From Escherichia phage CJY920: a DNA stretch of 64,000 nucleotides. Positions 49,044 to 51,757 of the stretch are shown here, piece by piece. The notes under the pieces were generated by a model. It had not been told where the DNA came from and ran no database searches. It saw only the letters and a program-made list of their open reading frames with translations. Both the position numbers and the translations under genes were made by a program. The first letter of the stretch is position 1; the number at the start of each line of letters is the position of its first letter. The stretch lies in the sequence record PQ349265.1; one strand, written 5' to 3'.

Positions 49044-49627
49044 TGATTAAATTGGTATTCGCTTATTCTCCAACTAAAACTGTCGAAGGCTTTAATGAAT
49101 TAGCATTCGGTTTAGGTGATGGTTTACCATGGGGACGAGTTAAAAAGGACCTCCAGAATTTTAAAGCTCGTACTGAAGGCACAATTATGATTATGGGTGC
49201 TAAAACGTTCCAGTCATTACCTACATTACTTCCAGGTCGTAGTCATGTGGTGGTATGTGATATTAAACGTGGCTATCCTGAAACTAAAGATGGTGATTTG
49301 GCTCATTTTTATATTACCTGGGATGAGTATGTTACCTTATTAGCTGGTGGACGTATCCAATTATCCAGTCCTAACACAAATTTTAAAACGTTTATCGATG
49401 ACAGTGAAAATCGCATCAGTGTAATTGGCGGACCCGCTTTGCTATATGCTGCATTACCTTATGCGGATGAAGTAGTTGTTTCTCGCATCGTTAAAAGGCA
49501 TCGTGTTAATTCAACGGTTCAATTAGATGCAAGCTTTCTTGATGATATAAGCAAGCGTGAAATGGTTGAAAGTCATTGGTATAAAATAGATGAAGTAACA
49601 ACCCTTACGGAATCAGTGTATAAATGA
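49043..49627 (+). CDS. frd: Frd dihydrofolate reductase, 193 aa
   Basis: DHFR fold motifs; length as T4 Frd. Confidence 0.9.
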
Positions 49628-50738
49628 AACAATATCAAAATTTAATTAAAGATATCCTGGAAAATGGCTACGAAACTGACGACCGTACCGGAACCGGTAC
49701 AATTGCACTGTTCGGTACTAAATTACGTTTTGATTTAACTAAAGGCTTCCCAGCGGTAACAACTAAAAAATTAGCATGGAAAGCTTGTATTGCTGAGCTC
49801 CTTTGGTTCTTGTCAGGTTCGACTAATGTTAATGATCTCAGAGAACGTACTCATGGCTCGCGTACTGAAGGTAAAACTATTTGGGACGAAAACTATGAAA
49901 ATCAGGCAATTTCTCTGGGATATTCTGATGGCGAACTGGGCCCTGTGTACGGGAAACAATGGCGAGATTTTGGTGGTATCGACCAGGTTGTAGAGATTGC
50001 AGAACGCATTAAGAAAATGCCTAATGACCGTCGTCAAATCGTATCAGCATGGAACCCGGCTGAAATCGACCAGATGGCTCTTCCACCATGCCACTGTTTT
50101 TACCAGTTCAACGTTCGTAATGGCTATTTGGATTTGCAGTGGTATCAACGTTCTGTAGATGTTTTCTTGGGTTAATTGAGGCCTGAGTATAAGGTGACTT
50201 ATACTTGTAATCTATCTAAACGGGGAACCTCTCTAGTAGACAATCCCGTGCTAAATGTTCTTTTGAACTAAATGCCTAACGACTATCCCTTTGGGGAGTA
50301 GGGTCAAGTGACTCGAAACGATAGACAACTTGCTTTAACAAGTTGGAGATATAGTCTGATCTGCATGGTGACATGCAGCTGGATATAATTCCGGGGTAAG
50401 ATTAACGACCTTATCTGAACATAATGCTTCCATTTAATATTGCATCATATGCTGCGTTAGTTCATATTGTAGCTAAGATGTGTAATCTTATTCCAGGAGA
50501 TTTGATATTTTCTGGCGGTAATACTCATATCTATATGAATCACGTAGAACAATGTAAAGAAATTTTGCGTCGTGAACCTAAAGAGCTTTGTGAACTGGTA
50601 ATAGGCGGATTGCCTTATAAATTCCGCTATCTTTCTACTAAAGAACAATTGGAATATGTTCTTAAACTCAGGCCTAAAGATTTCGTTCTTAAAGGTTACG
50701 AATCACACCCTCCTATTAAAGGAAAAATGGCGGTGTAA
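49624..50738 (+). CDS. td: Td thymidylate synthase, split: exon1 49624..50172, intron 50173..50426, exon2 50427..50738 (286 aa)
   Basis: TS motifs (PPCHCFYQF); in-frame exon junction ...VDVFLG|LPFNIASY...; intron ends with G. Confidence 0.93.
50173..50426 (+). ncRNA. group I self-splicing intron in td, 254 nt, no internal ORF
   Basis: 5' splice after exon U; core agggtcaagtgactcgaaac; 3' end ...aacauaaug; too short for an endonuclease ORF. Confidence 0.85.
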
Positions 50739-50761
50739 TTAATTATTAATTGTGAGGATAT

Positions 50762-51007
50762 ATGATTTTACGATTTAAAGATACTTCTGGTGTCGTTCTT
50801 TTTACACTTCCTAATCCAAGTGAGTTAGAAGTTCCAGGACCAAATCAGCCTATTATCATTTATGGCAAAAAATATTATACTCATAAAATGACTCGTGAGT
50901 ATTTTGATAATAAAATTTCTACGGTTAAAACTTCTTCAGATTGTTATTATGATATTACTGTTTTAACGGAAAAACAATATGACGAATGCAGAACTTTAGC
51001 AGTATAA
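50762..51007 (+). CDS. hypothetical protein, 81 aa
   Basis: ORF from table. Confidence 0.45.
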
Positions 51008-51727
51008 ATATGATTCCCAGCAATCTAGAGCGCATCTTTTAGATATAAGTTTTCTGCTTATTCCGGTTTGACGCACAGCTTCTGCTATTGTTGGATATTC
51101 TACCCCATCTATACTTACTCTTAGATGGGGTTTCTTTTTACCTCTTTGTGAGTCAGAAATTCGTTTTCTAACTTCATTGGTATGTGTCTGTCCATAATAT
51201 GGATTATTGATGCCTTTCATATTAAGTGCAGCGTTTCTTTCTTGGAACTTTTTGCTTATTTCTATAGCACGATCTAACCCATAGTGTTCTTCTATAGTTT
51301 TACCTTTGATATCTCTAGGTCTACCATGTTTTTGCTTAAGTTCTTCTGGTGATAATTTTGAATTATTATTTTTAATTGCATTTGAAATTTTATTAAGGAT
51401 TTCTTGCTTTCTTGGGTGATGAGATAAGGTATCCCCAAATGATGCGTCTGCTATATTATACCCATTTTCCTTTGAGTCATATTCATGCATCCAATAATTT
51501 TCACGTTCAATAATGATAGATTTTTCGTATGGAAGTTCTTCTATGATTTTACATACGAAAGCATCTTTCCCATGCTTATTATAAGAACGCTGCAGCTTTA
51601 TTGAATGATGATTTCCATTATCTAAATCTTTAAAGTGTCGTTTCCATCGTTCTTCAAAATTAATTGCACTTCCTATATAGTGCTTATTAGTTTTAGTGTT
51701 TATAATAGCATATATTCCAGATTTCAT
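50996..51727 (-). CDS. freestanding GIY-YIG homing endonuclease, I-TevI-like, 243 aa, opposite strand
   Basis: N-terminus [21 protein letters not shown]...RWKRHFKDL; NUMOD3-like [17 protein letters not shown]; C-terminal HTH-like region. Confidence 0.8.
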
Positions 51728-51749
51728 TATATTCTCCTATATAAAATTA

Positions 51750-51757
51750 TATTTATA
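51750..51757 (-). promoter_or_regulatory. late promoter TATAAATA for the GIY-YIG gene
   Basis: + strand tatttata ~25 nt upstream of the - strand ATG. Confidence 0.45.

Follow-up and report, generated by a model that had tools for sequence, protein, structure and literature searches.

We found that the td-nrdA locus of Escherichia phage CJY920, a T4-like phage of the genus Tequatrovirus, probably houses two separate selfish elements as neighbors: a decayed mobile group I intron within td, and a mobile cassette that carries a free-standing GIY-YIG homing endonuclease gene on the opposite strand, spreads by intronless homing, and is probably aimed at alleles bearing the small gene nrdA.1. The DNA analyzed was a stretch of 64,000 nucleotides (nt) from sequence record PQ349265.1, referred to hereafter as the window, whose closest full-length neighbors in the phage collection are LH2 and N2, at ~95.5% identity. 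The features that concern us, with their positions in the window, are as follows.

49624-50172, + strand: td exon 1, 183 codons (Pfam Thymidylat_synt positions 1-175)
50173-50426, + strand: group I intron of td, 254 nt, lacking an open reading frame (ORF-less; RF00028 covariance match)
50427-50738, + strand: td exon 2, 103 codons and the stop codon (Pfam Thymidylat_synt positions 176-266)
50762-51007, + strand: nrdA.2 (DUF5496; PF17600, E=2e-52)
50988-51774, - strand: mobile endonuclease cassette of ~780 base pairs, in place of nrdA.1 (breakpoint alignments)
50996-51727, - strand: free-standing GIY-YIG homing endonuclease gene, 243 amino acids (aa) (Pfam and I-TevI alignments)
51735-51757, - strand: putative T4-type late promoter TATAAATA (51750-51757) and Shine-Dalgarno sequence AGGAG (51735-51739)
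51775-54047, + strand: nrdA ribosome-binding site (RBS) GAGGACTT and nrdA (ATG at 51784), the right homology flank of the cassette

The cassette was delimited by alignment of the window with its relatives. Comparison with the cassette-less phages T2, RB3, HMD-9, PD112, IME339, and Shinka put the breakpoints at 50987/51775, and comparison with Jiaodavirus KP179 put them at 50995/51777, with homology limited to the cassette and the flanking td and nrdA genes only 71-78% identical. Thus bounded, the cassette comprises the endonuclease ORF with 47 nt of promoter and RBS sequence ahead of it and, at its other end, a 7-nt filler at the junction (50988-50994). Its junction has rewritten the C-terminal end of nrdA.2, i.e., the last 6 codons and the stop, so that the product is 81 aa long as opposed to 87. 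The right junction is common to the window and Jiaodavirus KpV477 (...ACAGAGGACTTATGCAA; ...ACAGAGGACTT-ATG, this ATG being the start of nrdA); the left junction, which includes the 7-nt filler, differs between Tequatrovirus and Jiaodavirus. In the annotations of T2, RB3, and G28, the interval between the breakpoints holds the end of nrdA.2 and nrdA.1, a DUF4326 gene; no nrdA.1 homologue was found anywhere in the 64-kilobase (kb) window.

The distribution of the cassette is patchy. Seven Tequatroviruses (LH2, N2, Ozark, TB004, ECO07P5, RPN226, and sutha) carry it at 98.8-99.4% identity to the window, which amounts to 7 Tequatrovirus genomes among the 716 phage records matching the region, and 18 of ~150 Jiaodavirus-type records, all from Klebsiella phages and all Jiaodaviruses where checked, carry it at 90-93% identity. 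Among the eight Tequatrovirus copies, the window's included, mean pairwise identity was 99.0% for the cassette, compared to 95.8% for nrdA.2, 96.5% for the 5' end of nrdA, and 86% for td exon 2. Identity above that of the flanks, together with sharp boundaries, is a hallmark of a mobile selfish element, and the cassette bears the marks of an active, recently spreading selfish gene. The endonuclease gene is intact in 10 of the 10 copies examined, with a ratio of nonsynonymous to synonymous substitution rates (dN/dS) of 0.05-0.11, and its protein is under purifying selection. That Klebsiella Jiaodaviruses share a near-identical cassette with Escherichia Tequatroviruses clearly reflects transfer between genera.

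In three genera, relatives without the cassette have nrdA.1 in its slot. Within Tequatrovirus, nrdA.1 is found in T2, RB3, and G28 and the cassette in the window; within Jiaodavirus, nrdA.1 is found in JD18 and KEN25_2 and the cassette in KpV477 and KP179; and within Tegunavirus, nrdA.1 is found in TG1 and the cassette in phiR1-RT. Since the endonuclease-less relatives carry nrdA.1, at least three genera have the endonuclease gene and nrdA.1 as alternative alleles. An 18-nt block of nrdA.1, CATGGTGATATAATAGCT, located ~50 nt before the start of nrdA, does not vary among the three genera and is a reasonable candidate for the recognition site of the enzyme. KP179 has an extra 243-nt insertion between the cassette and nrdA (3784-4026 in that record), with a 76-aa ORF and similar AGAGG/AGAGGA sequences at its bounds; this insertion suggests that the junction just before the start of nrdA has been used for insertion more than once.

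We then compared the presence of the cassette with the state of the td intron. The full 1016-nt intron with I-TevI is present in the carriers sutha, LH2, TB004, and RPN226 and the 254-nt intron in the window and N2; no td intron is present in Ozark, ECO07P5, or the two Jiaodaviruses examined, KP179 and KpV477. No linkage of intron and cassette was found, the eight Tequatrovirus carriers being divided among three td states (four with the I-TevI intron, two with the 254-nt intron, and two intronless). The other Jiaodavirus matches list a single thymidylate synthase gene, and the phages EcS1, phiR1-RT, and AbTZA1 have the endonuclease together with an uninterrupted td. Among the carriers checked outside Tequatrovirus, most have an uninterrupted td site, the exceptions being metagenomic contigs L027 and L028, and one and the same endonuclease protein (P0003) lies beside an intronless td on one metagenomic contig and beside a td with an I-TevI-type intron on another. 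Short td introns also occur without the cassette, as seen in HMD-9, PD112, Shinka, and G28, the four checked of the 37 phage records with a short td intron in a single stretch. Altogether, these comparisons argue that the endonuclease neither depends on nor specifically serves the td intron.

The same genomes bear on where the enzyme might cut. In ECO07P5, which has the cassette and no intron, the intron insertion site matches that of cassette-less T2 at every position from -18 to +44; as a carrier is not expected to keep its own target, this argues against cleavage at the insertion site. When eight carriers were aligned with eight non-carriers, no alignment column separated the two groups in td exon 1, in td exon 2 plus nrdA.2, or in the first 1.3 kb of nrdA, so the target is not localized to any retained flank, and carriers were no closer than non-carriers to the window in whole-flank identity. 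The sole consistent difference between the groups is the replaced nrdA.1 segment, and these alignments suggest that the target of the endonuclease lies in what carriers have lost. The first-pass annotation of the window had suggested that the intron and the endonuclease fit a trans-acting ('collaborative') homing arrangement, or an intermediate in intron/endonuclease association. With linkage absent, the insertion site intact in ECO07P5, short introns found without the cassette, and slot homologues located mostly beside intronless td genes, neither a dedicated collaborative-homing pair nor such an intermediate was supported.

The endonuclease itself is a collinear I-TevI paralogue without a zinc finger, as judged from its alignments. 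Its gene, on the - strand ~570 nt downstream of the td intron, had been recognized from the sequence as encoding a 243-aa GIY-YIG protein, and this identification was corroborated by Pfam (PF01541, E=7e-15). A full-length BLASTP comparison with the I-TevI protein of RB3 gave 46% identity (E=2e-71), collinear from end to end, and the window protein is presumably closer to I-TevI than the Seg proteins are. The likeness is unevenly distributed: identity to I-TevI is 70% in the catalytic domain (residues 1-98), 28% in the linker (residues 99-170), and 30% in the C-terminal part (residues 171-243). Residues 1-98 align to the I-TevI catalytic-domain crystal chains 1MK0/1LN0 (E=1e-39), in agreement with the close N-terminal resemblance noted earlier. 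Further along the protein, the NUMOD3-like module that had been described was recovered (E=2e-6), as was the C-terminal helix-turn-helix-like region (residues 156-239 aligned to the I-TevI DNA-binding domain 1I3J, E=3e-7), though the likeness to I-TevI is weak there (28-30%), and the match to Pfam I-TevI_DNA-bd (E=2e-4, 21.4 bits) is under the curated cut-off of 27.

In the 1MK0 alignment, the equivalents of GIY (4-6), YIG (17-19), R27, H31, H40, E76, and N91 are all kept; these are the catalytic residues of I-TevI. The four zinc-finger cysteines of I-TevI are absent from the 243-aa protein when it is aligned to I-TevI, and PF22635, the I-TevI zinc finger found on true I-TevI proteins, is not among its Pfam matches. 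Four residues are reported to set the preference of I-TevI for the CNNNG cleavage motif (PMC12774661), and 2 of the 4 differ in the window protein (E36D and C39N). Given the low identity of the linker (28%) and of the DNA-binding part (30%), a target different from that of I-TevI would be expected.

A late-promoter motif had been noted upstream of the endonuclease gene on the - strand, and it is present: TATAAATA lies at 51750-51757, 22 nt upstream of the ATG, and is followed by AGGAG. As statistical evidence by itself the motif was rejected, since its count in the window equals chance (10 found versus 10.2 expected). Its sole support is thus conservation across genera, TATAAATA being present at the equivalent site before the homologues of the gene in Jiaodavirus, Kagamiyamavirus, Tegunavirus, and Hadassahvirus. 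A scan of 50400-51900 for sigma-70 promoters and terminators gave nothing above shuffled expectation that bears on the endonuclease gene. A second TATAAATA, which the Jiaodavirus copies have conserved, lies on the + strand at 51003-51010, within the last endonuclease codons; it may be a chance occurrence, or else a late promoter running antisense through the endonuclease gene towards nrdA.

From these data, we propose how the cassette would spread. The endonuclease gene would be transcribed late from its own TATAAATA promoter; being opposite in strand to td and nrdA, it should escape read-through and stay silent until late in infection, to judge from T4 transcription patterns. In a mixed infection, the enzyme would cut the genome of a cassette-less phage, most likely within or beside the conserved 3' portion of nrdA.1 or at the nrdA.1/nrdA junction, sequence that carriers no longer have. 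Repair of the double-strand break would then copy the donor cassette by intronless homing, with nrdA.2/td supplying homology on one side and nrdA on the other. Because the td intron is 0.6-1.3 kb from the predicted cut zone, it may be co-converted occasionally, an event that would be incidental and imply no designed partnership. Entry into Tequatrovirus from a Jiaodavirus-like source would probably have relied on nrdA homology at the right end, the left end being joined illegitimately. SegF/SegG, and SegH and Hef, which replace mobC and mobE, are examples of intronless homing. Precedents have been described both for such homing and for trans homing by mobE (PMC2790892, PMC2988022, PMC3984707).

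The second element, the td intron, is matched by RF00028 at 50163-50378, over the full model (1-253), with 75.7 bits (E=2e-17), the gathering score of this Rfam group I intron model being 50 bits. Exon 1 ends in ...TTCTTGGGT at 50172 and the intron in ...CATAATG; the 5' exon has a terminal U and the intron a terminal G, and the splice sites read ...TTGGGT/TAATTG... and ...ATAATG/CTTCC. Joining 49624-50172 to 50427-50738 gave an uninterrupted 286-aa Td, which equals T2 Td in length and shares 88.9% identity with it, and no + strand ORF of at least 40 aa was found within the intron. Two earlier statements, that this is a 254-nt ORF-less intron at 50173-50426 and that it keeps group I core and splice-site features, were thereby verified by the ORF scan, the joined exons, the covariance match, and the U/G ends. 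Compared to the I-TevI-containing intron of RB3, the first 84 nt and the last 158 nt are 100% identical, and the 774 nt with I-TevI in RB3 are reduced to 12 nt in the window, which form the hairpin GUUC-UUUU-GAAC (fold z=-2.7). T4 td intron constructs of similar size with the ORF deleted are known to splice. With its complete catalytic core kept, the window intron should likewise splice to allow production of the 286-aa thymidylate synthase; it is without a mobility function of its own.

The td introns of the phage collection fall into size classes whose shared core is at least 96% identical throughout. The 1016-nt intron of RB3 has the full I-TevI gene; the 445-nt intron of G28 has the start and end of the gene left; the 320-nt intron of Shinka retains its last ~24 codons; the 262-nt intron of PD112 retains its last ~7 codons and the original stem; and the 254-nt intron of the window, N2, and HMD-9 has no I-TevI sequence beyond shared structural bases. 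The simplest reading of this series is repeated stepwise loss of the I-TevI gene, and Sandegren and Sjöberg are said to have described degenerate intron endonucleases in T-even phages in 2004. We therefore consider it likely, as part of the joint two-element account, that the window intron is a decayed group I intron of the T4 type, its I-TevI gene having been lost.

Several points weigh against this account of two neighboring elements. The presumed cleavage target is deduced solely from the sequence missing in cassette-bearing genomes. In Jiaodavirus, Kagamiyamavirus, Tegunavirus, and the metagenomic contigs, the 3' end of the cassette is at most 4 nt from the td stop or overlaps it by 4-34 nt, and a cassette abutting the td stop could equally point to a target at the 3' end of td. 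Homing sites tolerate variation, so a target in td or nrdA set by combinations of substitutions could still fit the comparison of 8 versus 8 genomes. The flanks beside the cassette are not homogenized, which would mean that co-conversion tracts are short or have been erased. As for the intron, the hairpin GTTCTTTTGAAC of the 254-nt class is no simple deletion product of the T4 sequence; this class may be an older or ancestral ORF-less lineage, an origin that the rebuilt hairpin keeps in play.

A rival explanation is trans homing of the mobE type, whereby the endonuclease cuts in the td-nrdA interval and repair regularly co-converts, and so maintains, the ORF-less td intron. The closest parallel is mobE/I-TevIII in nrdB of T4, a neighboring pair in which a free-standing endonuclease gene likewise lies <2 kb from an intron unable to mobilize itself (Wilson and Edgell 2009, PMC2790892), and the window also has an ORF-less nrdB intron beside a Hef-like endonuclease gene. 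The geometry would permit it as well: the td insertion site lies 570 nt away from the left end of the cassette and 1.35 kb away from its right end, within the ~2-kb co-conversion range of T4 homing endonucleases (PMC2790892), so that a passive ride is possible if the cut falls in or near the cassette slot. To this extent, the trans-acting reading of the first-pass annotation stands, in its anatomy and in a distance that could allow passive co-conversion; a dedicated partnership is not supported. Dependence on the endonuclease was shown genetically for mobE, whereas the window cassette and intron are unlinked in population data: carriers include all three intron states, short td introns are common without the cassette, and the interval between cassette and intron is polymorphic in carriers, with the values for nrdA.2 and td exon 2 given above falling short of the 99.0% of the cassette. 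We regard regular trans homing of the intron as rather unlikely.

Collaborative homing, as in the F-CphI/psbA intron of cyanophage S-PM2 or the DNA polymerase gene of T3-like phages, would have the paralogue target the td insertion site itself, with the intron protecting its carrier, and would make the locus an intermediate towards an intron-encoded endonuclease. This is a pathway proposed for how mobile introns originated (PMC2988022, PMC3984707), and the protein is a collinear paralogue of td-targeting I-TevI that is always found beside td. In those systems, however, the endonuclease cuts the insertion site and the intron provides immunity, whereas here the site is uninterrupted in most of the non-Tequatrovirus carriers checked and in Ozark and ECO07P5, the latter with the T2-identical sequence described above. 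The DNA-binding part, moreover, is ~30% identical to I-TevI and lacks the zinc finger, and both the complete identity of the intron flanks to those of the I-TevI-containing intron and the I-TevI remnants in the longer short introns point to loss rather than a state before invasion. We consider collaborative homing very improbable. Equally hard to credit is a domesticated, non-homing protein that persists at the locus as, e.g., a regulator or an anti-competitor nuclease. Purifying selection (dN/dS 0.05-0.11) and the conservation of the slot across genera are in keeping with such a role, as is the fact that I-TevI doubles as a repressor by binding its own operator (PMC2988022); but the patchy distribution in Tequatrovirus and among Jiaodavirus-type records, the sharp boundaries and above-flank identity of the cassette, and the retention of all catalytic residues speak against it.

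Preferring the two-element account, we compared the locus with known systems. The window endonuclease resembles I-TevI in its length (243 versus 245 aa), its collinearity, the 70% identity of its catalytic domain, its NUMOD3-like minor-groove helix and C-terminal helix-turn-helix, the late-promoter motif upstream, and its physical association with td; it differs in being encoded by a free-standing gene on the opposite strand rather than within an intron, in lacking the zinc-finger cysteines, and in 2 of the 4 CNNNG residues. In its lifestyle it resembles the seg and mob genes of T4 (PMC2988022, PMC2790892), i.e., a patchily distributed gene with sharp boundaries that lies between conserved genes as an alternative to a small gene, and that presumably cuts cassette-less genomes and is then copied by repair; the difference is that the window lineage occupies the td-nrdA (nrdA.1) slot. 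The locus also recalls the homing endonuclease gene (HEG) islands of Barth et al. (2023; PMC10448857), in which endonucleases and introns bracket essential nucleotide-metabolism genes and recombination boundaries coincide with nuclease genes; in the window, the corresponding elements are the td intron, the td-nrdA endonuclease gene, the Hef-like gene, and the nrdB intron. That study, which dealt with ICP1 and other phages and with other loci, proposed that such arrangements could alternatively originate when an intronic endonuclease is lost and a free-standing one gained. The locus thus resolves into known biology, a decayed intron together with a free-standing endonuclease in a shared hot spot, with no new mechanism, and it offers a natural test of whether collaborative-looking arrangements come from endonuclease turnover rather than from partnership (PMC10448857).

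Homologues of the endonuclease occupy the same td-nrdA slot, on the opposite strand, in EcS1 (Kagamiyamavirus), phiR1-RT (Tegunavirus), and Acinetobacter phage AbTZA1 (Twarogvirinae), and metagenomic contigs L025-L028 have an endonuclease 56-77% identical to that of the window in the same slot and orientation. In all three protein regions, the slot homologues show ~45-67% identity (AbTZA1, 29-67%), and their genes usually lie tail-to-tail with the td stop codon. This family of I-TevI paralogues, in the order td / endonuclease / nrdA, occurs in T4-like phages from at least two subfamilies and five genera. Its members are annotated in database records as 'homing endonuclease' or 'I-TevI', and no name or experimental characterization of the family was found in the searched literature. 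It could be that I-TevI arose from, or escaped into, the free-standing lineage of the slot endonucleases, and that these still act on td and mobilize ORF-less introns in trans, an idea that we find distinctly unlikely; if it were true, genomes such as the window's, with an ORF-less td intron and the free-standing paralogue, would restore the starting material for the Bonocora-Shub route to a mobile intron. The presence of uncharacterized (in the searched literature), zinc-finger-less I-TevI paralogues at one fixed slot is of specialist interest, and as natural variants of the I-TevI nuclease domain on a different linker and DNA-binding module they are relevant to engineered I-TevI-based nucleases.

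The surrounding genes, frd (49043-49627, + strand), td, nrdA, and nrdB, form a dense endonuclease island. The td arrangement recurs in the window at nrdB, where a 309-nt group I intron, again ORF-less, interrupts the gene at 56332-56640 (Rfam, 71.7 bits) and a free-standing Hef-like/HNH endonuclease gene of 530 aa (54064-55656) precedes it; compared to ECO07P5, nrdB exon 1 is 84% and exon 2 97% identical. The splitting of nrdA by an HNH/NUMOD endonuclease gene in relatives, in RPN226 (5773-6483) and L028 (1229-1939), adds evidence for such an island. A 144-aa GIY-YIG-like ORF after nrdB (57147-57581) was considered as a further homing endonuclease gene and rejected, as it matches the 'endonuclease' family phrog_1111; by sequence and position, we take it to be the counterpart of T4 denA (endonuclease II).

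Finally, the two exons of td differ in their affinities. Exon 2 is 94-98% identical to most Tequatrovirus td exon 2 sequences; that of Ozark, LH2, and IME339 aligned over about half its length, at 86-95%. Exon 1 is 75-78% identical to 13 other T4-like td genes, 94.7% identical to that of Dhakavirus IME341, and 100% identical to that of ECO07P1/P3. In a sliding-window comparison, exon 1 appeared as a foreign patch, Dhakavirus-like from 49624 to ~50110 and 96-100% identical to IME341 apart from a dip to 82-86% around 49974-50048, followed by ~60 nt of T4-like sequence before the intron insertion site; the switch occurs ~35 nt past the I-TevI cut position. The identical patch is found in ECO07P1/P3, which have the full I-TevI intron and no free-standing endonuclease gene. 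The edge of the patch resembles a boundary of recombination between genera, one placed there by the intron or its endonuclease.

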